DNA of 64,000 nt from Deltaproteobacteria bacterium (GTDB taxonomy: Bacteria > Desulfobacterota > Deferrimicrobia > J040), in the NCBI GenBank assembly GCA_011773515.1, contig WVXK01000062.1:68751-132750 (forward strand), read 5' to 3'. Positions 731 to 20,409 of this stretch are shown here, piece by piece. Numbering within the stretch: the first letter of the stretch is position 1; every line of letters begins with the position of its first letter. Below the pieces are notes generated by a model. The model saw nothing but the letters and a program-made list of their open reading frames with translations, was not told the DNA's origin and ran no database searches. A program made the translations under genes and the position numbers.

Positions 731-804
731 TGGCTGGGGGGGGAGGATTCGAACCTCCACTAGAGGCTCCAAAGGCCCCTGTCCTGCCCTTAGACGACCC
801 CCCA
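731..804 (-). tRNA. tRNA-Gln (anticodon TTG)
   Basis: Minus-strand 74 nt: TGGGGGG-TC-GTCT...AGGGGCC-TTTGGA-GCCTC...GGAGGTTCGAATCCTCC-CCCCCCA-G-CCA. 7-bp acceptor stem (TGGGGGG/CCCCCCA), T-loop GGTTCGAATCC, anticodon loop CTTTGGA with TTG at positions 34-36, encoded CCA end. Confidence 0.85.
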
Positions 805-828: not shown

Positions 829-1110
829 TCACATCGTCGGCTGCTCGTCAAGGTTTTTCAACTCACTCTCATATTCAGTGAGCACCGCCTTTTCAATCAT
901 GGAGCGCGTTTCGTTGTTCAAGGGATGGGCAGTGTCCCTGTAGGTCCCATCTTTTCTCTTTTTGCTCGGCATGGCAACGAAAAGCCCCTCGTTTCCTTTG
1001 ATTATTTTCAGGTCCCTGACGATAAAACAGTCATCGAAAATAATCGTGGCGTACGCTTTCAACCTCTCATCATTCTGCACGGGAAACACTTTCACCTCGG
1101 TAATGTCCAT
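829..1110 (-). CDS. spoVG: septation protein SpoVG
   Basis: 93 aa, MDITEVKVFPV...AYATIIFDDCFIVRDLKIIKG: classic SpoVG family; ATG with GAGGAGGGGGAG RBS. Confidence 0.9.
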   Translation of the reverse strand: MDITEVKVFPVQNDERLKAYATIIFDDCFIVRDLKIIKGNEGLFVAMPSKKRKDGTYRDTAHPLNNETRSMIEKAVLTEYESELKNLDEQPTM

Positions 1111-1131: not shown

Positions 1132-1989
1132 CTAAAAGTTGCTCACCAGCTTGGAAAAAAAACCTTCATTACCGTCGAAATCTTTCTGCGCCCTCTCCCC
1201 ATCCTCCTTTCTTTCATATAGTCCAAACACCGATGAACCCGATCCGCTCAAAAGGGCAGCTCCTGCTCCCAGAGCGAGCAGTCTTTCCTTTACCACCCCT
1301 AACTCAGGATACCGCTGAAATATCACATCCTCAAAATCATTGCGCAAAAAACCCTCAAGATCGCCGAGAGAGTTTATCATGTCGGGCTGCGGGCAGTCAA
1401 AAACAACCGGTTCACCACCCCTATCAAGCATCCTGTAGGCGGCTTTTGTGCTCACTGACACATCGGGCTTCACAATGAGAACATGAAACCTTTTTCCGAA
1501 CCGAATTTTTTTCACCTTTTCTCCCCTTCCCGCCACTACTGAGGGACCGGGAAAGATAAAAAAGGGCACATCGGAACCTATCTCCGGAGCAAGACCCATG
1601 AGGTCCCCTGCTCTCATCTCGCCAAGGAAAAGCAGGGACAACCCTTTCAAGACAGCGGCCGCATCACTGCTTCCGCCTCCGAGCCCGGAAGAAACGGGAA
1701 TATTCTTGTCGATTTCTATCTTCACCCCCCCGGACAGGGAATAGTGCTGAAAAAACAGATCGGCGGCCCTGAAGGCTATATTTTCCTCTCCCTCAGGAAC
1801 TTTGAAGTTGCCATCGCATGAAACTTCGATGCCCCTCTGTTTTTGGGAAATTGAAATCAGATCGAACAGGGAAACCGGCACCATGAGACTCACAATCTCA
1901 TGGTAACCATCGCTTCTCCTATGCAATACGTAAAGATAAAGATTGATTTTTGCCGGAGCGAGGATGTTTACTCTCTTAAATTTATTCAC
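1132..1989 (-). CDS. ispE: 4-diphosphocytidyl-2-C-methyl-D-erythritol kinase
   Basis: 285 aa GHMP kinase with LAPAKINLYL and PVSSGLGGGSSDAAA motifs; start is GTG at 1987-1989 per track (start call tentative). Confidence 0.9.
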   Translation of the reverse strand: MNKFKRVNILAPAKINLYLYVLHRRSDGYHEIVSLMVPVSLFDLISISQKQRGIEVSCDGNFKVPEGEENIAFRAADLFFQHYSLSGGVKIEIDKNIPVSSGLGGGSSDAAAVLKGLSLLFLGEMRAGDLMGLAPEIGSDVPFFIFPGPSVVAGRGEKVKKIRFGKRFHVLIVKPDVSVSTKAAYRMLDRGGEPVVFDCPQPDMINSLGDLEGFLRNDFEDVIFQRYPELGVVKERLLALGAGAALLSGSGSSVFGLYERKEDGERAQKDFDGNEGFFSKLVSNF

Positions 1990-2069: not shown

Positions 2070-4649
2070 TCAACTCTCAATCGAAAAGCGCAATCCCTCT
2101 TCACCCCGGTCAACGCTGACGACTGCACCTTCGGGGATCTCGCCGGAGATGATCCTGTGAGCGATGACATCGAGCACATGTTTCTGGATAGCCCTTTTCA
2201 GGGGTCTTGCCCCAAACACGGGATCCCATCCGCTCTCCACGATGAACTTCTTTGCACCTCCCGTAAGGTGTATCGATATATTCCTGTCCTTCAGGAGTGC
2301 CTCAACACTTTTGAGCTGAATATCGACAATTTTGACCAGGTCATCCTTTCCAAGGTTTCTGAATAGAACCGTCTCGTCGATCCTGTTGAGAAATTCCGGC
2401 TTGAAATGTCTCTTCAACTCTTCGAGAACCAGTTCTCCGCCCCGGTCAAAATCCTTTTCCGCCCATTCCTGGATTATGTGGCTTCCCACGTTTGACGTCA
2501 TAATTATAACAGTGTTTTTAAAATCCACGGTTCTGCCCTGGTTGTCGGTAAGACGCCCATCATCGAGTACCTGAAGGAATATATCGAAGACGCTCGAGTG
2601 GGCCTTTTCGATCTCGTCGAAAAGTATGACCGTGTAGGGCCTTCTTCTCACCGCTTCCGTCAACTGTCCCCCCTCCTCGTAGCCCACGTATCCGGGCGGA
2701 GCGCCTATCAGCCGGGCCACCGAGTGTTTTTCCATATACTCTGACATGTCGATCCTCACCATCGCGCTCTCTTCATCGAAGAGAAATTCGGCCAGGGCCC
2801 TGGCAAGCTCCGTCTTCCCGACTCCCGTGGGACCGAGAAATACAAAAGATCCTATCGGGCGGCCCGGGTCCTTGAGGCCGGCACGCCCCCTTCTCACGGC
2901 GTTTGAAACAAGTTCCACCGCCTTATCCTGACCGACCACCCGCTCCATGAGCTTTTCCTCCATTTTCAGGAGCTTGATGGACTCCGACTCCAGCAACCTC
3001 GTAACGGGTATCCTCGTCCACGTCGAGACGATTTCCGCAATGTCATCCTCGGTAACCTCCTCCTTCAGAAATCTTCTTTCCCCGGACAACCCCTCGATCT
3101 CTTCCTGCACCCGGCCCAGCTCCCGCATGAGCTCGGGCAAAACTCCGTAATTCAACCTGGATGCCCGCTCGAGGTCACCCTCCCGCTCGGCTATTTCTAT
3201 CTCGTTCTTGTTCGATTCGATCTTTTCTTTGATCTCCTGAACACGGGATATTATCCCCTTTTCTTTTTGCCATTGCCCGGTGAGCTCTTCCATCTCGCCA
3301 CGTAACTTTTGGATCTCCGTTTCAAATCGACCCAGTTTCTCCCGCGATGCGGCGTCATCTTCTCGCGACAGAGCCTTTTTCTCCATCTCGAGCTGCATGA
3401 TCTTCCTCTGGATCTCATCTATTTCGGTCGGTTTGCTGTCAATTTCTATTCTCAGCCTGGACCCTGCCTCATCAATGAGATCGACCGCCTTGTCGGGGAG
3501 AAATCTGTCGGAGATGTAGCGATGGGATAGAACGGCGGCAGCGATCAGGGCCGAGTCCCTGAACCTGACCCCATGGTGAACCTCGTACCGTTCCTTGAGA
3601 CCCCGGAGGATAGCAATGGTGCCCTCGACGGTCGGTTCCGTCACCATGACGGGCTGAAATCTCCGTTCGAGGGCCGGGTCCTTCTCGATGTTTTTCCTGT
3701 ACTCATCGAGAGTCGTTGCTCCGATACATCTCAGTTCCCCCCGTGCAAGGGGGGGCTTCAGCATGTTTGAAGCATCGATGGCCCCTTCGGCACTGCCTGC
3801 CCCAACAACCGTGTGCAGCTCGTCTATGAAGAGGATGATATCCCCCCCGGAATCGACGACCTCCTTGATCACCGCTTTTAGTCTCTCCTCAAACTCACCT
3901 CTGAACTTTGCCCCCGCAACCAGGGCCCCCATGTCAAGGGCTATGATTCTCTTCTCCTTCAGAGACTCCGGCACATCCTTTGCGAGAATCCTCCTTGCAA
4001 GTCCCTCCACGATAGCGGTTTTTCCCACACCGGCCTCACCGATGAGAACGGGGTTATTTTTCGTCCTCCTCGAGAGCACCTGGACTATCCTTCTTATCTC
4101 CTCATCCCTCCCGATTACGGGGTCGAGTTTTCCTGCCCTCGCAAGGTCGGTAAGATCCTTTCCGTATTTTTCCAGTGGCCTGTACCTGTCCTCCGGAGAT
4201 TCATCGGTTATCCGCATGCTCCCCCTCATTTCCGAAAGGGCCTTCAGGACCGCCTCCCTGGATACCCCCTGGCCGGCAAGAATTTTTGCAACGGATCCGC
4301 TCTCCTTATGGATTGCCCCCAGGAGAACGTGCTCGCCGGAAATATATTCGTCATTGAGCGCTTCCATCTCCCGTAAGGAAAGATCGAGCAGTTTTTCCAT
4401 TTCAGGGGTGATGTATTTCTGTGTAACCCCTGAAACCCTGGGAAGTTTTTCGAGCGCCCCGTCAATTTCTGACACGACCCTCTCAGGGGAGATCCCGATT
4501 TTTTTCACGATATCGCGCGCACTGCTCTCTTTTTCGGACAACAAAGCGTGGATCAGATGGGCACTGTCGATGAACTGGTGCCCCCGGGAATCTGACAGGT
4601 TTCTCGCCTTTTCTATGGCTTCCCGTGTTTTTATGGTAAACCTCTCCAT
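2070..4649 (-). CDS. clpB: chaperone ClpB (AAA+ disaggregase)
   Basis: Track ORF 2070..4814; true start ATG at 4647-4649 ([15 protein letters not shown]) preceded by GGAGG RBS. Two AAA+ modules ([13 protein letters not shown]; [12 protein letters not shown]) and the long coiled-coil middle domain typical of ClpB; no ClpP-binding loop. Confidence 0.95.
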
Positions 4650-4703
4650 GCTAATCACTGGAGAAACCTCCTCTTTTTTACCGTCGTCAATTATGAAAAC
4701 AAC

Positions 4704-4735
4704 AAAAAAAAACCCTCCCGGCAGGGCCGGGAGGG
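4704..4735 (-). terminator. rho-independent terminator after degP
   Basis: Minus strand CCCTCCCGGC-CCT-GCCGGGAGGG (perfect 10-bp GC stem) followed by a U9 run, 12 nt after the degP TAG stop. Confidence 0.8.
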
Positions 4736-4746
4736 GCTCGTGCCGG

Positions 4747-6192
4747 CTATTGCTTTTTGACAACCACGTACATTCTCCTTTCCCCTCTCTCGACGAGAAA
4801 AAGAACGCTGTCATCAGCTGAACCCTTTTTCAGGGCTTCCCTGAACTCATTCAAACTCCCGATGCGGTTTCTGTTCACCTGCCTTATGATGTCTCTCTCA
4901 CGAATACCGGCATCATCGGTGGGAGATCCCGACGCCACGCCGGTGACAATCACCCCTTTCATGTCCTCAATCTCCATGTGCTTCGCTATTTCCTCGGTGA
5001 TGTCCTGAACGGTCAGTCCCAGGTCCCCAATAATGTCCGTCTTTGCCATGGTGACCTCTTCGGGCATCTCTCCGAGTTTTACCTCCACAGTCTGCTCTTT
5101 ACCGTCCCTTATTATCCCGACCTTGACCTTCGTGCCAGGTGGGGTATCTGCAACGATGGCAGGGAGTTGCTGCGCATCCTCGATCTTCTTGGCGTTGAAT
5201 TCCTTCAGCACATCTCCCTCTTTCAATCCGGCGCTCTCGGCTGGTGAGTCTTTCATCACCTCCGTGATGATCACCCCGTCCTTGGACTCGAGGTTGAGAG
5301 ATTTCGCCATGTCATCGGTTATGCTCTGCATGTAGATTCCGAGCCACCCCCGAACGACCTTTCCCCGCTCCTTCAGCTGCGCGAAAACGGTCTTGGCCAT
5401 GTTGACGGGTATGGCGAAACCGATCCCCTGCCCACCCTGAACGATGGCTGTGTTGATCCCCACCACTTCTCCCTTCAGGTTGAAGAGGGGACCTCCGCTG
5501 TTTCCGGGGTTGATGGAGGCGTCGGTCTGGATGAAGTCATCGTAGGGTCCCGATCCGATTACCCTTCCTTTCGCGCTCACGATTCCCGTCGTTACCGTGT
5601 GATCGAGGCCGAAGGGGTTCCCTATCGCAACGACCCACTCACCCACTTTCAGAGAATCCGAGTCACCCATCTCCACCGTTGGCAGGGTATCTCCGTTCCT
5701 TATCCGTATAAGCGCTATATCCGTCTTCGGATCGGTCCCTATGATTTCCGCCTCGAACTCCTTCCCGTCGTGCAGCTTCACCGTTATCTCGTCAGCCCGC
5801 TGTACAACGTGACTGTTCGTAAGTATGAACCCGTCTCCCGACACGATAAAGCCCGACCCGAGAGATCGCCTCTTCTGCTCCCTCGGCATCCTGCCGAAAA
5901 AATCCTCGAAAAACTCCTCAAAGGGATCCCGGGAGAAAGGGCTTCTGAATTGCGGCTTTCTGAACTTCACGATGGTCGTGGTGCTGATGTTCACGATGGA
6001 ATCTTTCACCCCCTCTACGAGCTCCGGGATGTTCGTGGGAAGATTGAAGTTGCTTTCTTTCTGTTCGCCGGGCTTCTTCTCGATATAGGCAGCATCCGTT
6101 TTTTCCAGCAATTTTCCATCTTTGCCGTGAATAATCAGCCCAACCAAAATCACCAGTGCCAGAAGGAGCACACCGATTCTTACCTTCCTCAT
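4747..6192 (-). CDS. degP: periplasmic serine endoprotease DegP/HtrA family (trypsin domain + 2 PDZ)
   Basis: 481 aa; signal peptide [19 protein letters not shown]; catalytic motifs [15 protein letters not shown]; two PDZ-like regions; ATG with AAAGGAGGTGG RBS. Confidence 0.9.
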
Positions 6193-6230: not shown

Positions 6231-6713
6231 CTATGGATTATTCGATACGCCCTGCGCAACCTTCACGTAAACCATCCTCAGCTGGGAAAGGTATTCTTTG
6301 ATCAATGAATCTTCTTCCTCGGACAGGTTTCCCCTCGTTTTACGCTCCAGGACCCCGAGAAGGTCGATATATTGCCTGGCAATCTCCAGATTCGGCTCCC
6401 CGGGTGTCATCCCCTCACCTTCGAGCATGCCCAGTGAGGCCAGTGCCTGCATAAAAAAAGACTTCACGATGTCGGTGAAATCGGGTTCGTGGTATCGGGG
6501 GGGGGTCTCCCGGGCGTAATCTCCGCTCCCACCCGTTTTTTCGGCGGGCCCTTCGCTCTTTTTCGGCTCTTGACTCGCGTCTTTTGCCTGCTTGGCCCCC
6601 TCAGCTGCCCTGGACCCCACGGGAGGGACATCGCTTTTTTCTTCCGGTGCGTCCTCTCTTCCGATTCTCCTCTTGTCGATAACCCTGAACCCCTTCTCCT
6701 TCTCATCACCCAT
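6231..6713 (-). CDS. DUF1844-family hypothetical protein, translationally coupled to upstream Clp ATPase
   Basis: 160 aa; Lys/Glu-rich N-terminus then PDFTDIVKSFFMQALASLGMLEG (DUF1844-like core). Its ATG (6711-6713) directly abuts the TAG stop of the ClpA-like gene (TAGATG). Confidence 0.7.
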   Translation of the reverse strand: MGDEKEKGFRVIDKRRIGREDAPEEKSDVPPVGSRAAEGAKQAKDASQEPKKSEGPAEKTGGSGDYARETPPRYHEPDFTDIVKSFFMQALASLGMLEGEGMTPGEPNLEIARQYIDLLGVLERKTRGNLSEEEDSLIKEYLSQLRMVYVKVAQGVSNNP

Positions 6714-8981
6714 CTATACACCAACCTCCTTTTGGTTCACCACGAGATCCCCCTCAACGAGATCGAGGTAAAACATGTCCGACTCATTCCACATGAGCGT
6801 TATCGGGATCTTCACTTTCTCATCTATCGTCCTCTTGAGAAACCGTGCGCCGTATTTGATGCTGAACCCGATTTCAGAGAGAAAACCCAGAGATTCATCC
6901 GAGTACTGGAGGTCCTTTCCGTATTCGGCCATCGTCTTCTTGATCGTTTTCAGGTACATTTCCGCTATTTTCCTCACCTCCTCCATCGGGAGGAACCTGA
7001 AGACGATCACATCGTCAATTCGATTTATAAACTCGGGCGAAAAGCGTTCCTCAACGAGATTTATCACGCTCTTTTTCACCGATTCGTAGTTGGCATCTCC
7101 CACGTCAAAGCCCAGCGGCTTTGTCAGCCTCGAATACTCGCCGGCACCCAGGTTGCTCGTCATGATTATGATCGAATCGCTGAAGTATACCTTTTTGCCC
7201 CTGCCGTCGGTGAGCCACCCTTCATCGAAAACCTGGAGGAAAAGGTTGAGAACGTACTGGTCAGCCTTTTCGATCTCGTCCAGGAGGACCACGGTGTAGG
7301 GGTTGTCTTTTATCTGATTCGTCAAAATCCCGCCTCTCTCGGAGCCGACGATTCCCCGGGGCATGCCGATAAGTTTATCTACCGAGACGGTGCCGTCCCG
7401 GTACTCCGACATATCCACCCTCACCATCTTCTGATCATCACCGAAAAGGCATTGTGACAGCGCCTTTGCCATCTCCGTCTTGCCCACACCCGTCGGCCCC
7501 AGGAAAAGCAGAACGCCGTCCGGCTTGTAATAATTTTCCTTCAGGGGCCCCTTGTTCAGGCGCAGCGCCCTGCCCACGGCCTGGATTGCCTCGATCTGTC
7601 CCACCACTCTCGCCGTAAGGTCCTCCTCGATATGGGCGAACCTGTCCACAACATCCCGCTTGATTATGTCTACCGGTGTCTTGATCTCCTTCGATATCAC
7701 GCCGATGATATCCTCGGATGTGACGACTTTGTCCTTGTTCTCGATTTCAACCCTAACCGCTGCCGTATCGATCCAGTTGATAACCTTATCGGGGAGCCTC
7801 AGCGACCTTGCATATCTCTTGGACATGGAAAGAGCCATCTCTATTGCCTCATCGTCTATCACCACGCCATAATTAGACTCGAGACGGGGTTTGAGGCCGT
7901 AGAGTATCTCCCGCGTTTCCTCTATGGTGGGCTCGTCGATTTTTACGATTCTGAACCTCCTCGACAGAGCCTCGTCTTCCTGGATAATTTCCTTGTATTC
8001 CGTCGTGGTCGTTGCCCCTATCATCTGCACTTCACCCCGCGCCAGGGAGGACTTGAATATGTTCGCCGCATCGGAAGGAACACCCATGGCGGACCCGGCC
8101 CCGATAATTGTGTGGGCCTCGTCGACAAAGAGAATTATGTTCTTTTTCTCTCTGAGCTCATTTATGATCTTCTCGATCCTGTCCTCGAACATACCCCTGA
8201 ATACCGTACCGGCGACAACCGTGTTCATCTGAAGGTTGACCACCTGGTGGCCTCTCAGCCGCGGGGGCACCCTGTGGGGCTCGAACTCGAGGCGCAGCGC
8301 AACGCCCTCCACAACGGCGGTCTTACCCACACCGGGATCCCCCGTAACCATCACCGAATTGCACCTGTCCTTGTGGCAGAGAATTTCGAGAATCATATCG
8401 ATCTCATCTTCCCTTCCGATGACGGGGGGAATTTTTCCCTCCCTTGCCAGCAGGTTCAGGTTCACACCAAAGGTGCGAAGGTTAGTGGGAAGCTCGTATC
8501 TCTTCTTGAGGTCTTCGTATTTTTCCTCCCGCGTCTTCAGGTGCATGCTGAACTTCGAAAGGGCTGCCTGCGGATCGACCCCGTAACTCTTGAAAATTCT
8601 TGCCGGTATCGAATGTGTCTCGTGGAAGATTGCAAGAAAAATATCGGGAGGTTCGATGAGATTTCTCTTGTTCCTCTGTGTGGTTTCCCACGCGATGCGA
8701 AACACCTGTTTCGTCGCAGGGGGGATCTTCATGCCCACACCCAGGTATTGCCGCGAGATGCTCAAGTACTCCTTCAGGCTGTATATTACCGACTCAGGCT
8801 CGAGGCCGACGCTCTTTACCAGGTCCTGAAAGAGCTGCTTTTCAACCCCCGAAAAGGATATGAAGAGGTGTTCGAGCCCGAGGTAGTAGTGATGCCTCTT
8901 CTGGGACTCCTCGATGGCACTTGAAAGCATCTTCTGTGCTTTCTCGGTAAGTCTCTCTCTGTAGAACGCGATCTCCATCAT
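6714..8981 (-). CDS. ClpA/ClpC-family AAA+ unfoldase (Clp_N repeats + two AAA modules + ClpP-docking LGF loop)
   Basis: 755 aa; N-terminal double Clp_N repeat; Walker A GDPGVGKTAVVEG and [13 protein letters not shown]; KPLGFDVG tripeptide loop in D2 consistent with ClpP binding; ATG with GAGGG RBS. Confidence 0.9.
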   Translation of the reverse strand: MMEIAFYRERLTEKAQKMLSSAIEESQKRHHYYLGLEHLFISFSGVEKQLFQDLVKSVGLEPESVIYSLKEYLSISRQYLGVGMKIPPATKQVFRIAWETTQRNKRNLIEPPDIFLAIFHETHSIPARIFKSYGVDPQAALSKFSMHLKTREEKYEDLKKRYELPTNLRTFGVNLNLLAREGKIPPVIGREDEIDMILEILCHKDRCNSVMVTGDPGVGKTAVVEGVALRLEFEPHRVPPRLRGHQVVNLQMNTVVAGTVFRGMFEDRIEKIINELREKKNIILFVDEAHTIIGAGSAMGVPSDAANIFKSSLARGEVQMIGATTTTEYKEIIQEDEALSRRFRIVKIDEPTIEETREILYGLKPRLESNYGVVIDDEAIEMALSMSKRYARSLRLPDKVINWIDTAAVRVEIENKDKVVTSEDIIGVISKEIKTPVDIIKRDVVDRFAHIEEDLTARVVGQIEAIQAVGRALRLNKGPLKENYYKPDGVLLFLGPTGVGKTEMAKALSQCLFGDDQKMVRVDMSEYRDGTVSVDKLIGMPRGIVGSERGGILTNQIKDNPYTVVLLDEIEKADQYVLNLFLQVFDEGWLTDGRGKKVYFSDSIIIMTSNLGAGEYSRLTKPLGFDVGDANYESVKKSVINLVEERFSPEFINRIDDVIVFRFLPMEEVRKIAEMYLKTIKKTMAEYGKDLQYSDESLGFLSEIGFSIKYGARFLKRTIDEKVKIPITLMWNESDMFYLDLVEGDLVVNQKEVGV

Positions 8982-8993
8982 GGCTCTTTACCC

Positions 8994-9851
8994 TCAAGCT
9001 GACGTTCCCGCCATTTTTGACAGCCTCTGTATTCTTTCCTCAAGTGGCGGGTGAGTTGAGAAAAGAGCCCCGAACGCCCTTCGTCCGGAAAAATTGTTGA
9101 CGATAAACAGATGGGATGTGGCCGGGTTCGCCGCGATCGGGCGCGAGGGCCGGTATCCTCCAAGTTTTCTCAATGCGCTTGCAAGGTTCTCGGGTTTCCC
9201 GGATAGCTTCGCTCCTGAGGCATCGGCGAGATATTCCCTGCCCCGTGAGATTCCCAGCTGTATAACCATGGCGGCAATCGGCGCAAAGATCGCCACCGCC
9301 AGCAGCCCGAGAATTCCTCCTTCCCCGTCGTCGTCTCTGCCGCCGATGCCGAATATTGCAGCGAATCGTGCCATGGAGGCGAGCATCATGACTGCGCCGG
9401 CAAGGGTGGCAGCAACTGTCTGTATCAGCGTATCCCGGTTTCTGATATGGGCAAGCTCATGGGCCAAAACGCCCTCTATTTCGTCCTCCGTGAGCAAACC
9501 GAGCAATCCCGTGGTTACTGCCACGGCAGAGTTTTCCGGGTTTCGCCCGGTGGCAAAAGCGTTCGGCGTCGGATTCGGCACCACACACACTTTGGGCATG
9601 GGGAGGCCACCGGCCCGCGTCAATTCCCTTACGATGCGGTACAACTGGGGATACTCACCTTCATCGGCCTCCTTGGCCCTGTACATGCCGAGTACGATCC
9701 TGTCTGAAAACCAGTAGCTTCCGAAGTTAAAGAGAATGGCAAAGACAAAAGCGATGAGCATCCCCTGTCTTCCGCCAAACAAGCTCCCAATAACCAGCAG
9801 AAGGCCCGTCAGGAGGCTGAGAAGTATTGCCGTTCTAAACGTGCTCGTCAT
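8994..9851 (-). CDS. htpX: membrane zinc metalloprotease HtpX (M48)
   Basis: 285 aa, TM helices, HELAHIRNRD (HExxH) motif, typical HtpX length and topology. Confidence 0.9.
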   Translation of the reverse strand: MTSTFRTAILLSLLTGLLLVIGSLFGGRQGMLIAFVFAILFNFGSYWFSDRIVLGMYRAKEADEGEYPQLYRIVRELTRAGGLPMPKVCVVPNPTPNAFATGRNPENSAVAVTTGLLGLLTEDEIEGVLAHELAHIRNRDTLIQTVAATLAGAVMMLASMARFAAIFGIGGRDDDGEGGILGLLAVAIFAPIAAMVIQLGISRGREYLADASGAKLSGKPENLASALRKLGGYRPSRPIAANPATSHLFIVNNFSGRRAFGALFSTHPPLEERIQRLSKMAGTSA

Positions 9852-9896: not shown

Positions 9897-10979
9897 CTAC
9901 TCTGAGTACCTACTCCTTATATCATTATCTTCCCATTTTGCCATTTCTTTAACAAGTCTTCTGTACGCCTCGTCCTGATTTCTGGGAAGGACAACCCTGA
10001 CCACGACATACTGGTCACCCCTTCCCCCGCCGCTTTTGTATGCGCCCTTGCCCTTCAACCGTATCTTCTTTCCGCTCTCGGTACCCGGGGGAATCTTCAC
10101 CTTCACCGTGCCGTCTATGGTCGGCACCTCGATCGTGGCCCCGAGAACAGCCTCAGAGTAATTGAGAGGAACTTCCATGAATATATCGAATCCCTCTCTC
10201 TTGAAGAACCGGTGGGCTCCTACCTCGACTTCCAGGTAGAGATCCCCTGAGCCTCCACCAGCTCTGCCCATCTCTCCTTTTCCTGCAACTCTCACCTTCG
10301 TTCCCCTGCTTGCGCCCGGTGGGATTTTGACCTTAATCCTTTCCGAGACATCTTTCATCCCCGCGCCAATGCATGACCCGCAGGGGGAACCGGTAAATCC
10401 TGCCCCCCTGCAACTTTCACAGGGCTGGGCTATACCCAATATCCCTCCCCCGCGCTTCATCCGCCCGCTGCCCCCGCAGGTTGCACAGGTGGATCGGGCA
10501 CCCGCCTGAATTCCTACTCCCCCGCAGTCAGGGCATTCCACGCGCCTTCTGTAGCTCAGCTCCCTTTCGGTCCCCTTTGCCGCCTCCAGAAAAGAGAGTT
10601 CGGCCCTGATCACGAGATCTCTTCCCCGCGTTGGTCCCCACTCACCATGTCCGGAACGCCCGAAAATATCCCCGAATATGTCTCCCAGGTCGAAGGACAT
10701 TCCCCTTCCGCCGGGATAGTCAAACCCTGAAAAACCCTCGAATCCGCCGGAGGAAAAGGCTCCCCTCTTCACGGCATCGTACTGCGCTTTCTTGCTCTCG
10801 TCGGATAGAACATCATGAGCTTCGTTTATTTCTTTGAACTTTTTCTCCGCTTCCTCATTCCCCGGATTTACGTCGGGATGATATTTCTTCGCAAGTCTTC
10901 TGAACGCTCTCTTTATCTCCTCTTTCGTGGCGCTTTCCGGGATGCCAAGTATTTTGTAATAGTCCCTTGAAAAATCCAT
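9897..10979 (-). CDS. dnaJ: chaperone DnaJ
   Basis: 360 aa; J-domain (YYKILGIPESATKEEIKRAFRRLAKKYHPDVN), G/F region, four CxxCxGxG zinc-finger repeats, C-terminal domains. Confidence 0.95.
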   Translation of the reverse strand: MDFSRDYYKILGIPESATKEEIKRAFRRLAKKYHPDVNPGNEEAEKKFKEINEAHDVLSDESKKAQYDAVKRGAFSSGGFEGFSGFDYPGGRGMSFDLGDIFGDIFGRSGHGEWGPTRGRDLVIRAELSFLEAAKGTERELSYRRRVECPDCGGVGIQAGARSTCATCGGSGRMKRGGGILGIAQPCESCRGAGFTGSPCGSCIGAGMKDVSERIKVKIPPGASRGTKVRVAGKGEMGRAGGGSGDLYLEVEVGAHRFFKREGFDIFMEVPLNYSEAVLGATIEVPTIDGTVKVKIPPGTESGKKIRLKGKGAYKSGGGRGDQYVVVRVVLPRNQDEAYRRLVKEMAKWEDNDIRSRYSE

Positions 10980-11059: not shown

Positions 11060-11512
11060 TTACCCAGCGTTGATGTCTATCTTCTTGGGTCTCACCTCTT
11101 CTTTCTTCGGAAGAATGATCTCGAGGACGCCATCTTTGAACGTAGCCGATACCTTCTCCTGATCAATCTTGGAGTTCAGGGAAAAGGATCTCCTAAAGGA
11201 TCCATACTCGCGCTCCATGAGATGGAAATGCTCCTTGTCCACCTCTTTCTGATACTTCCTCTCGCCCCGTATCGTCAGGATCCCGTCCTTGACCTCGATG
11301 CTTACATCATCCCGGCCTATCCCGGGAAGCTCGGCTGTTACCATCACCTGTGAATCCGTTTCACATATATCCACAGAGGGTGACCAGACGCCTTTTCCCG
11401 GGACATCCTCCTTTTTCCGGGAGCCTCGAAATTTTTCTTCGAAGAGCCTGTTCATCCTGTCCTGAATTAGCGCAAGCTCCCTTAGAGGATCATACCACCT
11501 TACGATAGCCAT
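11060..11512 (-). CDS. small heat-shock protein (Hsp20/alpha-crystallin family)
   Basis: 150 aa; alpha-crystallin domain (AELPGIGRDDVSIEVKDGILTIRGER); AGGAGG RBS 7 nt upstream; only 27 bp downstream of dnaK. Confidence 0.9.
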   Translation of the reverse strand: MAIVRWYDPLRELALIQDRMNRLFEEKFRGSRKKEDVPGKGVWSPSVDICETDSQVMVTAELPGIGRDDVSIEVKDGILTIRGERKYQKEVDKEHFHLMEREYGSFRRSFSLNSKIDQEKVSATFKDGVLEIILPKKEEVRPKKIDINAG

Positions 11513-11539: not shown

Positions 11540-13462
11540 TCATGAACTCGACTTATCCTGATCTTCAAACTCCGCGTCGATAACATCGGAATCGCCCGCC
11601 GCTCCCTCACCGGACGGCTGAGACGCTGTCGCCTCTCCGGCTCCTTCTTCCGGCTCGGCTGTTTTTGCCTGCTTGTACATTATCTCCGCAATCTTGTGGG
11701 CCTCCTTCATCAGCTCGTCTGCAGCAGAGCGAAGGGCGTCTTCGTCATCCGACTTCAGCACTTCTTTTGCCCTGCTCAACCCATCTTCTGCTTTTGAGAC
11801 TTCATCCGGTGGCAGTTCAGAACGGTTCTCGTTCAAAGTCTTCTCTATGTTATAGATGAGGTTGTCGAGATTATTCCTGGCCTCGACGATCCTCCTTTGC
11901 TTTTTGTCCTCTTCAGAGTGAACTTCCGCTTCATCGACCATCCTCTTGATCTCCTCATCGGTTAGTCCCGTAGAGGACGTGACGGTTATCCTCTGTTCCT
12001 TGTTGGTTGCGAGGTCTTTCGCCGAAACATTGAGAATCCCGTTGGCGTCAATGTCGAAGGTCACCTCCACCTTGGGGATTCCCCTGGGTGCCGGGGGAAT
12101 ACCCTCGAGGTGAAATCGACCGAGGGTCCTGTTGGCCCTTGCCATTTCACGTTCACCCTGGAGAACGTGAATCTCCACCGATGTCTGGTTGTCGGCCGCA
12201 GTGGTAAATATCTCGCTCTTTTTGACCGGTATGGTCGTATTTCGCTCGGTAATTTTGGTCATTACGCCCCCGAGTGTCTCTATGCCGAGCGAGAGAGGAG
12301 TAACATCGAGGAGGAGAACGTCCTTGACCTCTCCGCCGAGGACGCCCGCCTGAACCGCCGCCCCGAGGGCAACGACTTCATCGGGGTTCACACCCTTGTG
12401 GGGCTCTTTTCCGAAGAAATTTTTGACCGCCTCCTGAACCTTGGGGATCCTGGTGGAGCCCCCGACGAGAATGATTTCATCGATGTCATCTCCCTTCAAG
12501 TCAGCATCGGAGAGGGCAAGCCTGCAGGGTTCAAGGGTACGCTCAACGATCTGTTCAATCATGGTTTCGAGCTTCGCCCTGGTCAATTTCATGCTGAGGT
12601 GTTTCGGTCCGGAAGCGTCTGCGGTGATAAACGGCAGGTTTATCTCCGTCTCGAGAACAGACGAGAGCTCGATCTTTGCTTTCTCGGCCGCTTCCTTCAG
12701 CCTCTGGAGAGCCATCTTGTCCTTGGACAGGTCTATTCCCTGGTCCTTCCTGAACTCCTCTATGATCCAGTCGATTACCCGCTGATCGATGTTGTCACCG
12801 CCAAGGTGCGTATCCCCGTTGGTCGCTTTCACCTCGACCACATTCTCTCCCACCTCGAGAATGGATATATCGAAGGTACCACCACCAAAATCATACACCG
12901 CTATGACCTCGTTCTTCTTCTTGTCCAGCCCGTATGCCAGTGCTGCAGCGGTGGGCTCGTTGATGATCCTCATCACCTCGAGGCCCGCGATGGTCCCGGC
13001 ATCTTTGGTTGCCTGCCGCTGCGAGTCGTTGAAGTATGCAGGAACGGTGATGACAGCTTTCTTGACCTCCTCGCCGAGATATGCCTCTGCGGCTTTTTTC
13101 AGCTTCCCCAGGACCATGGCCGATATCTGCTGTGGGGTGTAATCCTTGCCTGCAACCAGGATACGAGCGTCGTTGTTCGGCCCGCTCTGTACCTGGTACG
13201 GCACCATCTCTTTTTCTTCCTTTACCTCATCATGGCGCCGTCCCATGAATCGCTTTATCGAAAAGACGGTATTGTCCGGGTTCGTGATTGCCTGTCTTTT
13301 CGCTACCTGCCCGACAAGAACCTGCCCATCCTTTGCGAAAGCAACGACCGACGGGGTCAGCCTGGATCCCTCTTCATTGATGATGACTTTGGGCTCCCCA
13401 CCCTCCATCACCGCGACAACCGACATCGTGGTACCAAGGTCAATACCGATAATCTTTGACAT
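11540..13462 (-). CDS. dnaK: chaperone DnaK (Hsp70)
   Basis: 640 aa; [30 protein letters not shown], full NBD + SBD + lid; GGAGG RBS overlapped by the stop codon of the upstream REC gene. Confidence 0.97.
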
Positions 13463-13478: not shown

Positions 13479-13862
13479 TTATTTTTTGGGCGTTCTGGTA
13501 ATCAACCGTGCGATAAACCGTGAAAGTGTCTCCGGATGGAGGGGCCTGGTGACGAAACCGACGGCACCAGACTCCAGAGCCCGCGTCCACCGCTCCAGAC
13601 TCCCACTTTCAGACATAAAAACCGAGGGGATCGAAGAGGTAATGTCCAGAAGGTTCCCCAGCGGATCATATCCACCGTAGGGTATGTCATCTAGGTCTAT
13701 GAGCGCCATGGAAAACCCGCCTTTTGCCCATTTCTGCCCAAAATCGAGAAGGTCGAGGCAGACCTCGGCTTCGATACCGAAAACACCGAGTTCCTCGACG
13801 AGCTCCCTTATCTCATCTCCCATCTCTTTCCTGCCTACTATGAGCAGAACCCTCGCAAACAT
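13479..13862 (-). CDS. stand-alone atypical receiver (REC/CheY-like) domain protein
   Basis: 127 aa; CheY-like spacing with phosphoacceptor-position Asp (MALIDLDD), Ser at beta4 (VFMSESG), but the acidic Mg-binding pair after beta1 is replaced (IVGRKE) and the beta5 Lys is Arg (VTRPL). GGAGG RBS; TAA stop at 13479-13481 lies inside the dnaK RBS. Confidence 0.75.
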
Positions 13863-14011: not shown

Positions 14012-14044
14012 CTGCCAAAATGGCCTGGCGTGTCATTTTGGCAG
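14012..14044. promoter_or_regulatory. perfect 10-bp inverted repeat CTGCCAAAAT-N13-ATTTTGGCAG (candidate enhancer/operator)
   Basis: Seen directly; sits between the 3' end of the sigma-54 activator gene and the REC-dnaK start (~165 bp upstream of REC ATG); half-sites contain TGGCA. Confidence 0.5.
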
Positions 14045-14058: not shown

Positions 14059-15468
14059 TTACGGTAATCCGTATTCCTTGATCTTTCTGTAGAGGGTCCT
14101 CACTCCGATACCCAGCATCTTGGCCGCTTTTGTCTTGTTGTTTCCCGTTGCTTTCAAGGCTTCGATTATGGCATTTTTTTCAACCTCATCCAGCGGAATG
14201 ACCACGGCACCCCCATCGTCTTCAGCGGGGGATTCCACCCTTCCCGCGACGGGTATCGGATCCCTTCCTTCTCTGTACCGCTTTCTTTTGAGTTCGGTCG
14301 GGAGAACCTCTTTGGAGATAACCTCCCCCTCCGTGAGCAGAACCATGGATTCGATCACATTTCTCAACTCCCTCACGTTGCCCGGCCATGGGTACTGCTG
14401 AAAAACCCGCATCGCATCAGCCGAAATCCTCTTCTCCTCGAGACCGTTTTCCCTGCACAGGTTTTTTGTGAAATGGATCGCCAGGGTGGGTATATCCTCG
14501 GTTCTCTCTCTCAAAGGCGGAATATGTATCGTAAAGACGCTCAATCTGAAAAAGAGGTCTTCCCGAAACTTTTTCGACGAAACCAAGCCTCTCAGGTCAG
14601 AGTTCGTAGCGGCCACTATCCTCACGTCAACGTTGATGACCTTGCCTCCTCCGACTCTCAGGATCTCTTTCTGCTCGATTGCCCTGAGAAGCTTCGCCTG
14701 CGTCGAGAGAGTGAGGTCACCAATCTCATCGAGGAAGAGTGTCCCATCGGACGCAATTTCGAATTTTCCCTTTACCGCACCGACTGCGCCGGTGAATGCG
14801 CCTTTTTCATGGCCGAACAGTTCCGACTCAAGAATGCTTTCGGTGAGGGCGGCGCAGTTTATCGGCATAAAAAGTTTATCCTTCCGTGGGCTCATCTCGT
14901 GAATCGCACGCGCAACCAGCTCCTTCCCCGTGCCCGACTCACCGAGAATCAGGACGTTTGCCTTCGTGGGGGCGACCATGCGCACCATCTGCATTACCTT
15001 CTCCATTTCCCGCGACCGGTAGAGAATTTCACCGACTTCGGTTTTAACCAGTCTTCTCAGTGTCCCCAGCTCTTCCATCATCCCCCGAGCTCGAATCGTC
15101 TTGATCAGGACACCTTTCAGCTCTTCCATGTCAATGGGTTTTTGAAGGTAATCCGTCGCCCCTTCTTTGATTGCGTGGACTGCATTTCCGATCGTCCCGA
15201 AAGCCGTGAGGACGATTACCGGAGCGTGAGGATGGGCCTCTTTCACTTTCCTGATTACTTCCATGCCGTCTAAACCCGGCATTTTCATGTCTGTTATGAT
15301 TATGTCGCCCCCGGAATCATCGATGCGGGAGATAAACTCCAGGGGGGAATTGAAAAGCCTCACCTCGAAACCCAGGTTCGTAAGTGCCCTCCCGATGCTC
15401 GTGAGATTTTCTTTGTCATCATCGATAACCGTTACGCTTTTTCCGGAAAATTCCGGGAGCGATTTCAT
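14059..15468 (-). CDS. sigma-54-dependent response regulator (NtrC family: REC + AAA sigma-54 activator + Fis-type HTH)
   Basis: Track ORF extends to 15711 (alt start); true start ATG 15466-15468 (MKSLPEFSGKSVTVIDDDKEN) with GGAGG RBS. Canonical REC (DDD, D in IITDMKMPG, T, K); GESGTGKE Walker A, GAFTGA sigma-54 contact motif; C-terminal HTH AAKMLGIGVRTLYRKIKEYGL. Confidence 0.93.
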   Translation of the reverse strand: MKSLPEFSGKSVTVIDDDKENLTSIGRALTNLGFEVRLFNSPLEFISRIDDSGGDIIITDMKMPGLDGMEVIRKVKEAHPHAPVIVLTAFGTIGNAVHAIKEGATDYLQKPIDMEELKGVLIKTIRARGMMEELGTLRRLVKTEVGEILYRSREMEKVMQMVRMVAPTKANVLILGESGTGKELVARAIHEMSPRKDKLFMPINCAALTESILESELFGHEKGAFTGAVGAVKGKFEIASDGTLFLDEIGDLTLSTQAKLLRAIEQKEILRVGGGKVINVDVRIVAATNSDLRGLVSSKKFREDLFFRLSVFTIHIPPLRERTEDIPTLAIHFTKNLCRENGLEEKRISADAMRVFQQYPWPGNVRELRNVIESMVLLTEGEVISKEVLPTELKRKRYREGRDPIPVAGRVESPAEDDGGAVVIPLDEVEKNAIIEALKATGNNKTKAAKMLGIGVRTLYRKIKEYGLP

Positions 15469-16226
15469 TTCACAACCTCCGGAAGGTACCGCCCCCTCTG
15501 TTTCTTCGCCAACACCTCCCGGAAACTTTCCTCCGGAAGGAAAGAGAGGGTAAACTCCGTCCCCTTTCTCTTCCTGCTCCTTATGCGTACCTTGCCGTGA
15601 TGCTCCCTCATTATCCTCTTCACTATCGGCAAACCCAACCCGCTCCCTTCGGTCTTGGTCGTGTAAAACACCGAGAACACTTTTCCCCTGTCCTTCCTTT
15701 CGATCCCGCAACCGTTGTCCTTGACCTTTACGAAATAGAAATTCTCCTCTTTTCCCGTTGTCACCCTGATCGTCTTGTCCTCCTTGTCAAGCGATTCCGC
15801 AGCGTTTAAAAGCACGTTCAAAAGAGCCTGTTTCACCATTTTTTCATCGACGAGAACAGGAAAAGGAGCCTCGTCGGGCAAGTATCGCACCTTAATGTCC
15901 CTGCCACGAAAGTCGACCTCCACGAACCGGACCACTTCCTCGACAACCCTGTTTAGGTCAGTAACGACAAACTCCGGCTTCTTCGGGCGGGTCAGCCGCA
16001 AAAATTCCGAAACGATGTCGTTGAGCCTGTTCAAAACTCGAAGATTCGAGTCGATGATCTCCTGCATTTCTCCTTTCTTTTCAAACCACTCAGGCAGAAG
16101 AAACGTATATTCCGAGAGAAGCTGATTATTGATGCTCAGCGCATTGAGCGGATTTCGAATCTCATGGGCAATGCCGGACAGAGCCGATTCGAGCTCTTCC
16201 TGGGAAACTTTTTTTTTCCGGGCCAT
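15465..16226 (-). CDS. cytoplasmic histidine kinase lacking any sensor/TM domain (HisKA + HATPase_c only)
   Basis: 253 aa; H-box GIAHEIRNPLNAL begins ~17 aa from the N-terminus; G-boxes DNGCGIE, GSGLGLPIVKRIM. 4-nt overlap (ATGA) with the activator gene. Confidence 0.9.
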   Translation of the reverse strand: MARKKKVSQEELESALSGIAHEIRNPLNALSINNQLLSEYTFLLPEWFEKKGEMQEIIDSNLRVLNRLNDIVSEFLRLTRPKKPEFVVTDLNRVVEEVVRFVEVDFRGRDIKVRYLPDEAPFPVLVDEKMVKQALLNVLLNAAESLDKEDKTIRVTTGKEENFYFVKVKDNGCGIERKDRGKVFSVFYTTKTEGSGLGLPIVKRIMREHHGKVRIRSRKRKGTEFTLSFLPEESFREVLAKKQRGRYLPEVVK

Positions 16227-16270: not shown

Positions 16271-16639
16271 TCAAGGATTATTTTCAATCAGGTGGGGGAT
16301 AAAAACATTTTTGATATCGGGAAGATAAATCTTTTCAGCGGGCGTTTCAAGGACCAGTCTCGCTCCTTTTACCGGCAATATAATCCTGTTCGGAGGGATG
16401 TTCCTGATTATCTTCACCACCTCCCCGCTGGATGACACGAAGAAAGCATCTATCCTGAATCTCATGAAAAACGTGTGGATCGAACTGCAGGGAAACAGAA
16501 TCACCGGTTCCCCTACCGTGTGAACTTTCCTGAATGCAAGACCGAAAAACCTCTCAAGGAAAGAGTCAAGAAGACGCGCTTCGACGACCAGGTCCCCCAT
16601 TGAAGAACGGGCCTCTACCGTGACTCTCCCACCGGCCAT
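16271..16639 (-). CDS. DUF192 (COG1430) family protein
   Basis: Track ORF 16271..16741; internal ATG at 16637-39 (MAGGRVTVEAR) chosen because the upstream lipoprotein gene ends at 16662. DUF192-like core (LERFFGLAFR...GEPVILFPCSSIHTFFMRFRIDAFFV). Start uncertain. Confidence 0.65.
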   Translation of the reverse strand: MAGGRVTVEARSSMGDLVVEARLLDSFLERFFGLAFRKVHTVGEPVILFPCSSIHTFFMRFRIDAFFVSSSGEVVKIIRNIPPNRIILPVKGARLVLETPAEKIYLPDIKNVFIPHLIENNP

Positions 16640-16661
16640 ACCAGCCCCCGACTGCGGTCGT

Positions 16662-17201
16662 TCAGAAATAGGTTGCCTCGATGAAGGGAACGAGACCGGT
16701 TCCCAGGTTATCCCCGCCGTCCTCGAGAAAAACGGCTCCATCCCTGGCTTCGAGGCTGATCTGAAAACGGTCCCCCCTTCCCTCCAGCGCGTCGATCAGA
16801 ATATCCGTCACATCGAGAAAGACATAGCTCATCTCATCGGACAGGAAAATCTCGAAGCTTCCCGCGTAGATACCGGACCCCTGGAAGATATCTATCACCA
16901 GCGAGTCTTCAGGAGCAAAGACAGAGTGAACACCGATGAACAGGAAAGCATGCGAAATGAAAGCATGGGGGGGGATGGCGTGAAGGGGGAAGGAAAAAAA
17001 CCCCGTTGAAAAATGACTCTCTACGAGTATCCCGTCGTGAAGGAATATACCCTCGGTATCCACATATCCATCTTCCGAATCGATGCTGACAAGTTCAACG
17101 ACCACGCCATCATCACCATCGAACAGAAACGACCCCTCAACATTGCAGCCGGCAAGCAGAAGGAGCAACGCAACGGGCCCAAGCATCTTTTTCATCTTCA
17201 T
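16662..17201 (-). CDS. acidic lipoprotein of unknown function
   Basis: Track ORF to 17261 (TTG). Likely start MKMKKMLGPVALLLLLAGC (lipobox LAGC) with GGAGG RBS; mature part is Asp/Glu-rich (DGDDGVVVELVSIDSEDGYVDTEG). Coordinates may be off by 1 nt (my line counting disagreed with the track by one base here). Confidence 0.6.
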   Translation of the reverse strand: MKMKKMLGPVALLLLLAGCNVEGSFLFDGDDGVVVELVSIDSEDGYVDTEGIFLHDGILVESHFSTGFFSFPLHAIPPHAFISHAFLFIGVHSVFAPEDSLVIDIFQGSGIYAGSFEIFLSDEMSYVFLDVTDILIDALEGRGDRFQISLEARDGAVFLEDGGDNLGTGLVPFIEATYF

Positions 17202-19417: not shown

Positions 19418-20409
19418 GGGCCAACAGCGTGCCATTACTTTCAGATCACACTGGCAGGACGGTCAACTACCTGAGAATCTCTGTCACCGACAGGTGCAAC
19501 CTCAGATGCACCTACTGTATGCCACCCGCCGTCGTGTCAGCGAGAAAGGATAAGCGACTCCTTCGCTACGAAGAGATGACCAGGCTCATCGAGATGCTCC
19601 TCCCCCTCGGGATCAGCAAGATACGGATAACGGGCGGGGAGCCACTCGTCCGCAAAGACCTGCCCCTCTTTATCGAAATGATCAAAAAGTCGGCTCCCCA
19701 CGCTGAACTCTGCATGACGACAAACGGTATTCTCGTAACCAGGTACCTGGAAGACCTGAGGAAGGCGGGCATAGACCGATTCAACGTGAGCCTGGACACG
19801 CTGAAGGCAGACAGGTTCAGGAAGATCACCGGTTACGACCTGCTCGATCAGGTGCTCGAGGGAATAAACGGGATAATAGCGAAAGAACTATTTCCGTTAA
19901 AGTTAAACGTCCTTCTCATCCCGGGAGTGAACAGCGATGAGATAGAAAGCTTCATCGAGTTTGCCAGAACCCACCCCGTGGAAGTGCGATTCATAGAAAA
20001 GATGCCGATAGGAAGCCTCAGGGACACAGGTTTTGTTCCCGTGTCGAAGGTTGAGGCGGCTCTCTGGAATAAGTATGGTGAAGTGAGGGGAAGAAGGGCC
20101 AGAGGTGAAACTTCCCTTCAGTACGACCTAAAGGGGTTCGCAGGGAAAATAGGGCTGATTGCTCCCCTCTCCAGAACCTTTTGTTCCGACTGCAACAGGT
20201 TGAGGATTACCGCCGGCGGAGAAATTCTCAACTGTCTCCTCAATAGGACGGCATATGATGTGGGGTCGGCCCTTGAAAACGGCAGCGGAGACTCCGAGAT
20301 CATGGATGTAATAAAGAGGGCTCTGTCAGAAAAACCCGCACGGTACGACCAGGGGTATCTGTTCAGAAGCGGCCAGATGAAAAGGTGCATGACCAGCATC
20401 GGGGGGTGA
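19414..20409 (+). CDS. moaA: GTP 3',8-cyclase MoaA (radical SAM)
   Basis: 331 aa; YLRISVTDRCNLRCTYCMP radical-SAM cluster motif; C-terminal MoaA-specific domain; overlaps PBP1A stop by 4 nt. Confidence 0.92.
   Translation: MRANSVPLLSDHTGRTVNYLRISVTDRCNLRCTYCMPPAVVSARKDKRLLRYEEMTRLIEMLLPLGISKIRITGGEPLVRKDLPLFIEMIKKSAPHAELCMTTNGILVTRYLEDLRKAGIDRFNVSLDTLKADRFRKITGYDLLDQVLEGINGIIAKELFPLKLNVLLIPGVNSDEIESFIEFARTHPVEVRFIEKMPIGSLRDTGFVPVSKVEAALWNKYGEVRGRRARGETSLQYDLKGFAGKIGLIAPLSRTFCSDCNRLRITAGGEILNCLLNRTAYDVGSALENGSGDSEIMDVIKRALSEKPARYDQGYLFRSGQMKRCMTSIGG

Follow-up and report, generated by a model that had tools for sequence, protein, structure and literature searches.

Here we analyse a stretch of 64,000 nucleotides (nt) from a Deltaproteobacteria bacterium (assembly GCA_011773515.1, contig WVXK01000062.1, positions 68,751 to 132,750; hereafter the window, to which coordinates refer unless a locus is named), and in particular a small DUF1844 gene that lies directly behind the gene of a ClpA-like Hsp100 unfoldase. 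The two belong to a unit of eight genes on one strand, coding in order for a receiver-like protein, DnaK, Hsp20, DnaJ, HtpX, the ClpA-like unfoldase, DUF1844 as the seventh and HtrA (Table 1). DUF1844 is a catalogued, uncharacterised Pfam family with no function assigned, as a sequence-only reading of the window, made without database searches, had rightly stated when it proposed that the protein is an adaptor or regulator of the unfoldase. We show that DUF1844 and the unfoldase gene are transcribed together and coupled in translation within a conserved heat-shock operon, and that the arrangement is restricted to one lineage. Because DUF1844 stands beside unrelated genes across bacteria, the case for a dedicated unfoldase adaptor is weak, and we favour, with a probability of about one half, a reading in which DUF1844 is a co-regulated protein-quality-control accessory kept in its ancestral slot, the junction with the unfoldase gene being a product of operon compaction.

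Junction and products of the unfoldase and DUF1844 genes

Read on the minus strand, the sequence at the junction is GTA TAG ATG GGT, with the TAG stop of the unfoldase gene at 6714-6716 and the ATG start of DUF1844 at 6711-6713, and DUF1844 indeed starts, as had been noted earlier, on the base directly after the unfoldase stop with a spacing of 0 nt. Seven of seven genome loci (the window together with L001, L004, L055, L081, L083 and L087) have a junction of -1 or 0 nt, either as TAAATG or TAGATG (0 nt) or as cTGATG or TAATG (1-nt overlap). The sequence-only reading took TAGATG to imply stoichiometric co-expression, a claim that we cannot uphold, since DUF1844 has a Shine-Dalgarno sequence of its own and genes in compact operons are commonly spaced by 0 or -1 nt. 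This AAGGAGG lies 11 nt 5' of the ATG, so that independent initiation on DUF1844 is possible, and purine-rich, Shine-Dalgarno-like codons are found at the equivalent position in six related genome loci. Moreover, DUF1844 is packed equally tightly against unrelated genes, at -4/0 nt to the gene of a metallo-beta-lactamase (MBL)-fold protein in Acidobacteriota and at -1 nt to htrA in L087. We infer that the 0/-1 nt junction reflects operon compaction and is not evidence of an obligate 1:1 complex of unfoldase and adaptor.

The unfoldase carries the Pfam domains AAA, AAA_lid_9, AAA_2 and ClpB_D2-small, and both of its Walker pairs are intact (Walker A GDPGVGKT at residue 214 and GPTGVGKT at residue 495; Walker B ILFVDE and VVLLDE). 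Aligned with Bacillus subtilis ClpC, its residues 10-414 correspond to the N-domain and D1 and residues 416-727 to D2, and the step from residue 414 to 416 spans ClpC residues 405 to 467, leaving about 60 ClpC residues (406-466) without counterpart. A ClpC identity was rejected on this ground, the coiled-coil M-domain between D1 and D2 being absent, and a ClpB identity because the score against TIGR03346 (605.7 bits, in two separate stretches) falls below the cut-off of 1232 and a ClpP-type LGF loop is present. The best full-length match is to the ClpA equivalog TIGR02639 (594.3 bits, cut-off 993.15); in fact the protein lies below all NCBIfam Clp cut-offs, with a D1 that is closest to ClpC. 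The KPLGF at residue 621 (LGF 623-625) had been read as a ClpP-docking loop, and this is borne out by its exact alignment with the VGF docking loop of B. subtilis ClpC (TKPLGFDVGDA against NKYVGFNVQDE). The double Clp_N repeat claimed for the N-terminus fares less evenly: residues 10-150 align with the whole ClpC N-domain, which speaks for it, but Pfam detects the second repeat alone, and weakly (30 bits), and this repeat is without the GTEH motif. Taken together, N-domain, D1, D2, intact Walker motifs, a [LIV]GF loop and the missing M-domain make up a ClpA-type architecture. The protein shares its N-D1-D2 layout, both Walker A/B pairs and the loop with ClpA and ClpC, and differs from them in scoring below the 993-bit ClpA cut-off, in lacking the ClpC M-domain, in its divergent second N-repeat, and in that its subfamily is always encoded behind dnaK-dnaJ, where clpA and clpC are not usually found.

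The family assignment of the 160-residue DUF1844 protein, proposed in the sequence-only reading, is now secure, as PF08899 matches residues 76-151 at 76.3 bits (E 2e-21; cut-off 27 bits) over model positions 1-76 of 76. All 34 homologues in our alignment match PF08899 as well, and they share the same initial Met, which supports the start codon; NCBIfam holds no model for the protein, and public records already annotate the product as DUF1844. In an AlphaFold2 model built with the 34-sequence alignment, residues 1-75 are charged and predicted to be disordered (predicted local distance difference test, pLDDT, about 50), and the core is a three-helix bundle (helices 79-93, 109-125 and 132-158) with pLDDT above 90. 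The disorder and the compact core that had been described earlier therefore stand, whereas the description of the tail as Lys/Glu-rich needs qualifying, since its 75 residues comprise 9 Lys, 7 Arg, 10 Glu and 6 Asp and are better called charged, with a net charge of 0. Near its start lies the peptide motif KGFRVIDKRR, with a disordered charged linker over about residues 17-75, and the turn between helices 2 and 3 has the form KT[RK]GNL[ST]xxE, in which K125, T126, G128, N129, L130 and E134 are invariant among the aligned homologues. By its likely C-cap, hydrophobic staple and N-cap this turn looks at least partly structural.

In a census of 178 DUF1844 members, nearly all open with an acidic stretch and continue with a short N-terminal motif of either of two kinds, F-x-V-x-D-[KR]-[RK] (123 members) or the variant D-x-[DE]-W-K (36 members, mostly of the Planctomycetota type). 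Conservation of this peptide at the end of a disordered tail suggests that it may dock on a widely conserved partner. Members throughout the family have the disordered tail, the N-terminal motif and the three-helix core, also in phyla where no such unfoldase is a neighbour, and motif, linker and bundle are therefore not adaptations to the unfoldase of one lineage; for the same reason the tail-plus-core layout does not mark the protein as an adaptor, as the sequence-only reading had argued. By prediction DUF1844 folds into a helical bundle of a generic kind, neither ClpS-like nor MecA-like. No match to the ClpS domain (PF02617) or the MecA domain (PF05389) was found in DUF1844 even at E <= 10, a DUF1844 profile had no match among PDB sequences at the same threshold, the 34 members showed no recurrent second family in Pfam and NCBIfam at E <= 10, and no RNA-binding fold or motif was detected. 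A literature search returned nothing on DUF1844 as a Clp adaptor and no experimental data, and the term 'PF08899' gave no match.

At E <= 1e-3 a library clustered at 50% identity contains 8,046 representatives of the family, and the best 150 of these are all standalone proteins of 125-250 residues without gene fusions. An 890-residue 'ClpA-like + extra' protein (P0149, L089 6001-8673) was considered as a ClpA-DUF1844 fusion and rejected as an assembly frameshift artefact: the unfoldase frame shifts near 7990 and DUF1844 is intact in a third frame. On the same L089 contig dnaJ is likewise split over two frames.

Confinement of the unfoldase-DUF1844 pair to one lineage

Scanning metagenomes with the unfoldase sequence returned 80 loci, in 74 of which the contig continues for 350 nt or more past the unfoldase gene; these 74 are made up of 61 loci at 68% unfoldase identity or more and 13 at about 61%. 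At 61 of the 61 closer loci DUF1844 lies directly downstream, at -1 nt in 55 and at 0 nt in 6, and the order DnaK-Hsp20-DnaJ-HtpX-ClpA-like-DUF1844-HtrA-ClpB is kept. As the whole operon is equally conserved, this adjacency says nothing specific about the unfoldase-DUF1844 pair. Eleven of the 13 more distant loci, and likewise L088, instead have the order DnaK-DnaJ-ClpA-like-tandem Usp-MgtE-RecO without DUF1844 there, and the remaining two (L163 and L164; 62% identity) have DUF1844 183 and 98 nt downstream with a ribosome-binding site of its own. At every locus long enough to show upstream genes the unfoldase stands behind dnaK-dnaJ, and DnaK and DnaJ are the invariant companions of this unfoldase family, which is large and by annotation belongs mostly to Deferrimicrobiaceae, with some members in Syntrophorhabdaceae. 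The unfoldase N-domain is strongly conserved within the clade, and in the Usp-linked and DUF1844-linked distant groups alike it has 42-47% identity to that of the window protein and the same signature, which means that it does not co-vary with the DUF1844 neighbour. DUF1844 itself has diverged to 33-36% identity, against 69-75% for the unfoldase.

We also viewed the arrangement from DUF1844, in 80 species-level loci analysed by tblastn and clustering of open reading frames (ORFs). A ClpA-like unfoldase lies directly upstream in three of these (L001, L004 and L055), and any Hsp100 gene lies within 10 kb in six, with five Desulfobacterota-like loci, none of 28 in Planctomycetota and none of 19 in Acidobacteriota. 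The 26 Desulfobacterota-like loci have the order SerA-DUF1844-(HtrA)-IspE-Prs-L25-Pth, include the three with the unfoldase upstream, and hold a heat-shock gene within 10 kb in 16 cases. The 28 Planctomycetota loci (SmpB-DUF1844-TrpC), the 19 from Acidobacteriota (DUF1844-MBL-fold hydrolase-RibF) and the 3 from Omnitrophota (DUF1844 followed, as seen by eye, by an AroQ-like gene) have no ClpA-like gene upstream, and a heat-shock gene lies within 10 kb in 0, 1 and 0 of them, respectively. In Planctomycetota smpB is directly upstream on the same strand in 14 of 28 loci (L002-L044) and trpC directly downstream in most, and there are 17 loci in which the MBL gene follows DUF1844 directly, often at -4/0 nt, almost all of them belonging to the 19 of Acidobacteriota. 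Other contexts are MBL-RibF in L091 and no informative neighbour in L090, and in the clade of the window ClpB-IspE-SpoVG-Prs-L25-Pth stand behind htrA. The window protein shares with the PF08899 family the domain, the standalone size of 125-250 residues, the KT[RK]GNL turn and the N-terminal motif, and differs in setting only, a heat-shock operon behind a ClpA-like gene (3 of 80 loci). A neighbourhood survey had been named earlier as a check on the adaptor proposal, and the co-occurrence of DUF1844 with Clp ATPases that it looks for holds within one lineage and fails outside it.

These two surveys bear on the possibility that DUF1844 is a lineage-specific adaptor, anti-adaptor or regulator of the heat-shock ClpA-like unfoldase in Deferrimicrobiaceae and Syntrophorhabdaceae, which would dock on the N-domain by its bundle or its N-terminal peptide and so alter substrate choice or ClpP-directed activity. 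What favours such a dedicated partner also weighs against our preferred reading of a general accessory. The -1/0 nt junction is invariant in 61 metagenome and 7 genome loci of both families, as would be expected of a functional pair; L163 and L164, a second and more distant unfoldase lineage, also have DUF1844 downstream; and the unfoldase has a ClpP loop, no M-domain, an N-domain highly conserved within the clade and, as the sequence-only reading had correctly seen, no clpS or mecA beside it, its neighbours being HtpX upstream and HtrA downstream in the DUF1844 unit. Two further points weigh against a general accessory, namely that Hsp100 genes occur near DUF1844 in at least four arrangements (ClpA-like directly upstream in L001, L004 and L055; ClpB-HtpX-DUF1844 in L033; DUF1844-ClpB in L049; ClpA-like about 1.3 kb upstream in L025), and that a general proteostasis role is drawn from genomic context alone. 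Against a dedicated partner, on the other hand, stand a pair no more conserved than the whole operon, Usp in the place of DUF1844 at 11 of 13 loci, an N-domain signature independent of DUF1844, the much faster divergence of DUF1844, adaptor-like features that are family-wide on a generic fold, and 77 of 80 DUF1844 loci without the unfoldase directly upstream. The proposal of an unfoldase adaptor or regulator thus keeps the 61 of 61 close-orthologue loci on its side and loses ground on the Usp-linked loci, the 3 of 80 and the family-wide features, and we consider a dedicated partner unlikely.

Similar to ClpS-ClpA of Escherichia coli and MecA-ClpC of B. subtilis, the window has the gene of a small protein beside that of a class-I Clp unfoldase with an N-domain and a ClpP loop. 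However, DUF1844 is predicted to be all-alpha, unlike the alpha/beta ClpS and MecA C-domain, and has no match to PF02617 or PF05389; clpS-clpA has the reverse gene order; the window unfoldase has no M-domain, which in ClpC is the contact site for MecA and McsB; and the association with an unfoldase does not extend across the DUF1844 family.

With SspB-type tethering adaptors DUF1844 shares a layout of terminal short peptide, long low-complexity linker and compact domain, but the peptide is N-terminal in DUF1844 and C-terminal in SspB, and there is no sequence similarity; the SspB fold also differs from the three-helix bundle of DUF1844. It is conceivable that DUF1844 is a family-wide Clp adaptor of this tether type, SspB in mirror image, in which the F-[KR]-V-[IV]-D-[KR]-R peptide would bind the ClpX zinc-binding domain or Clp_N, the linker would give reach and the bundle would hold the cargo. 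The neighbourhoods with SmpB in Planctomycetota (smpB encodes the partner of transfer-messenger RNA) and with Hsp100 in Desulfobacterota would then both reflect the degradation of aberrant proteins. Besides the layout, the position of smpB directly upstream in the 14 Planctomycetota loci and the Hsp100 genes nearby in several arrangements fit this idea, and the N-terminal peptide is loosely like LRVVK, the ClpX-binding tail of SspB, a resemblance that may serve as a lead. It is opposed by the lack of sequence or fold similarity to SspB, ClpS and MecA and by the many contexts without a link to proteolysis (TrpC, MBL-RibF, SerA, IspE); the SmpB adjacency, moreover, is found in one phylum only and may be inherited synteny. 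We regard this mirror-image tether as distinctly unlikely.

Among proteostasis genes, htrA is the one that recurs most often beside DUF1844, and in 9 of 25 Desulfobacterota-like loci it is the adjacent gene on the downstream side. The two genes adjoin in three ways: with htrA upstream across a 22-nt gap (L085 8650-10582), with a one-PDZ htrA downstream (L092 6001-7562), and with htrA downstream in a 1-nt overlap (L087 8271-10246). These varied contacts would suit a partner of HtrA in envelope stress, or a DnaK co-chaperone, in either case not tied to the unfoldase, and the basic-hydrophobic N-terminal peptide would resemble a typical DnaK-binding segment. But a hydrophobic N-terminal signal or anchor is present in HtrA and absent from DUF1844, which probably places the two proteins in different compartments; htrA genes are multi-copy, and chance adjacency is thus not rare; and Planctomycetota and Acidobacteriota show no HtrA link. 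We find such a partnership very doubtful. A further idea is a translation quality-control factor acting on stalled ribosomes or on aberrant aminoacyl- or peptidyl-tRNA, for which the position in a heat-shock operon would be incidental. Neighbours of DUF1844 that fit are SmpB in Planctomycetota, GlnS and, in Desulfobacterota, L25/Ctc and Pth at a distance of three to four genes on the downstream side; in addition, the one paper in the searched literature that mentions DUF1844 has a table entry linking it to D-Tyr-tRNA deacylase in Deinococcus-Thermus (PMC9425974). The string ispE-prs-ctc-pth is, however, widely conserved by itself, each of the associations is confined to one phylum, and the protein shows no RNA-binding fold or motif, all of which makes such a factor highly improbable.

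The heat-shock operon, its promoter and its surroundings

The dnaK-htrA unit appears, from the elements in its upstream sequence, to be driven by sigma-54 together with an enhancer-binding protein. We observe a -24/-12 promoter element 5' of the first gene, paired upstream palindromes, and an adjacent gene for an enhancer-binding protein of the NtrC type, preceded by that of a histidine kinase in which no Pfam domain other than HisKA and HATPase_c was detected (Table 1). A TGGCATGACTTTTGAA-type motif alone is not significant, with 12 matches in the window against 11 expected. Related loci have similar elements: TGGCA-N6-TTG lies about 50-100 nt 5' of the first gene in L081, L083 and L089, L087 has a TGGTAC-N5-TTGT element that was seen by eye, and paired palindromes of matching consensus occur in all four. 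A search of the window for the CIRCE (controlling inverted repeat of chaperone expression) operator of HrcA gave no match, and the operon is thus not of the HrcA type. Our literature search found no sigma-54 dnaK operon in Deltaproteobacteria, nor this operon arrangement. The receiver-like protein of the first gene may provide feedback to the two-component/enhancer-binding-protein system; in L081 and L087, too, dnaK is preceded by a small receiver gene of this kind, with a Response_reg match.

At the other end of the unit htrA starts 38 nt past the DUF1844 stop, with an AAGGAGG Shine-Dalgarno sequence of its own and no terminator between, and a strong intrinsic terminator behind htrA marks the end of the transcription unit. 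The listed 914-residue ORF of clpB, the next gene, is over-extended; its start is likely the GTG near 4656-4658 or an ATG three codons on (MERFT...), behind a GAGGAGG Shine-Dalgarno sequence. This start is so near the terminator that almost no space is left for a clpB promoter. Further on, a 132-residue plus-strand ORF (730-1128) overlies tRNA-Gln and spoVG and is probably not real.

Table 1. Genes and sequence elements of the window around the DUF1844 gene, by position.
Feature	Position	Strand	Basis or remark
tRNA-Gln(UUG)	731..804	-	just 3' of spoVG, towards the expected prs gene
spoVG	829..1110	-	3' of ispE
ispE (GHMP kinase)	1132..1989	-	marks the slot DUF1844-(htrA)-ispE-prs-ctc-pth of other Desulfobacterota
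clpB	2070..4658	-	probably a separate transcription unit
Intrinsic terminator	4713..4735	-	10-bp stem with 9 G-C pairs, then T9; 12 nt 3' of the htrA stop
htrA/degP (481 residues)	4747..6192	-	trypsin-like domain and two PDZ; hydrophobic N-terminus
DUF1844 gene (160 residues)	6231..6713	-	ORF, Pfam PF08899, homologue alignment, AlphaFold2
TAG/ATG junction, 0-nt spacing	6711..6716	-	window sequence; conserved in relatives
Shine-Dalgarno AAGGAGG for DUF1844	6725..6731	-	within the last unfoldase codons
ClpA/ClpC-like class-I Hsp100 unfoldase gene (755 residues)	6714..8981	-	Pfam, NCBIfam, ClpC alignment
HtpX-type M48 membrane protease gene	8994..9851	-	ORF, Pfam; 12 nt 5' of the unfoldase gene
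dnaJ	9897..10979	-	ORF, Pfam of orthologous gene, tblastn
hsp20 (small heat-shock protein)	11060..11512	-	ORF, orthologue annotation
dnaK	11540..13462	-	ORF, orthologue annotation
Receiver-like protein gene (127 residues), first of the unit	13479..13862	-	Response_reg 24.5 bits, below cut-off
Sigma-54-type -24/-12 promoter element TGGCATGACTTTTGAA	13898..13913	-	about 35 nt 5' of the first gene
Two adjacent TGCCA-N3-TGGCA-like palindromes	14013..14043	-	presumed enhancer-binding-protein sites
NtrC-type sigma-54 activator gene	14059..15471	-	receiver, Sigma54_activat and HTH_8
Histidine kinase gene (253 residues)	15465..16226	-	HisKA and HATPase_c
DUF192 gene	16271..16741		DUF192 also before the kinase gene in L081 and L083
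Class-A penicillin-binding protein gene	17354..19417		beyond the two-component genes
MoaA gene	19414..20409		beyond the two-component genes
RtcB RNA ligase gene	20464..21912		beyond the two-component genes

Possible role of DUF1844

In the reading that we prefer, a co-regulated accessory of protein quality control, DUF1844 would be a small cytosolic protein made up of a three-helix bundle and, in front of it, a tail of some 75 flexible and charged residues, and its gene would be the seventh to be transcribed in a heat-shock operon under the putative control of sigma-54 and an enhancer-binding protein. The gene would retain the ancestral position 5' of (htrA)-ispE-prs-ctc-pth that it has in other Desulfobacterota. 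The simplest history is one in which the order DUF1844-(htrA)-ispE is the older and a chaperone/unfoldase block now abuts it, so that in Deferrimicrobiaceae and Syntrophorhabdaceae the block would have come to stand directly before DUF1844, with the junction compacted to 0 or -1 nt. The terminal peptide and helical bundle that are common to the whole family would on this reading engage a partner shared by many phyla, and not this unfoldase alone. A more speculative extension of the tether idea is that DUF1844 widely serves phyla without SspB as a tether-type adaptor or regulator of their Clp/Hsp100 unfoldases, docking on the N-domain by its N-terminal peptide and binding cargo by its bundle, and that it is coupled here to a heat-shock ClpA-like unfoldase working with DnaK-DnaJ and ClpP; this we think rather unlikely.

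The more solid result is the operon itself, a conserved heat-shock unit, apparently driven by sigma-54 and an enhancer-binding protein, with a ClpA-like unfoldase that is linked to DnaK-DnaJ. DUF1844 is a large and conserved family (about 8,000 representatives at 50% identity), and the present evidence chiefly shows how poorly the close coupling of genes within a single clade predicts what a family so widespread does; the idea of DUF1844 as an adaptor is weakly supported, and it is testable. If true, a link to proteostasis would give a role to a housekeeping-like protein of Desulfobacterota, Planctomycetota, Acidobacteriota and other phyla, and could reveal a class of Clp adaptor outside Proteobacteria and Firmicutes.

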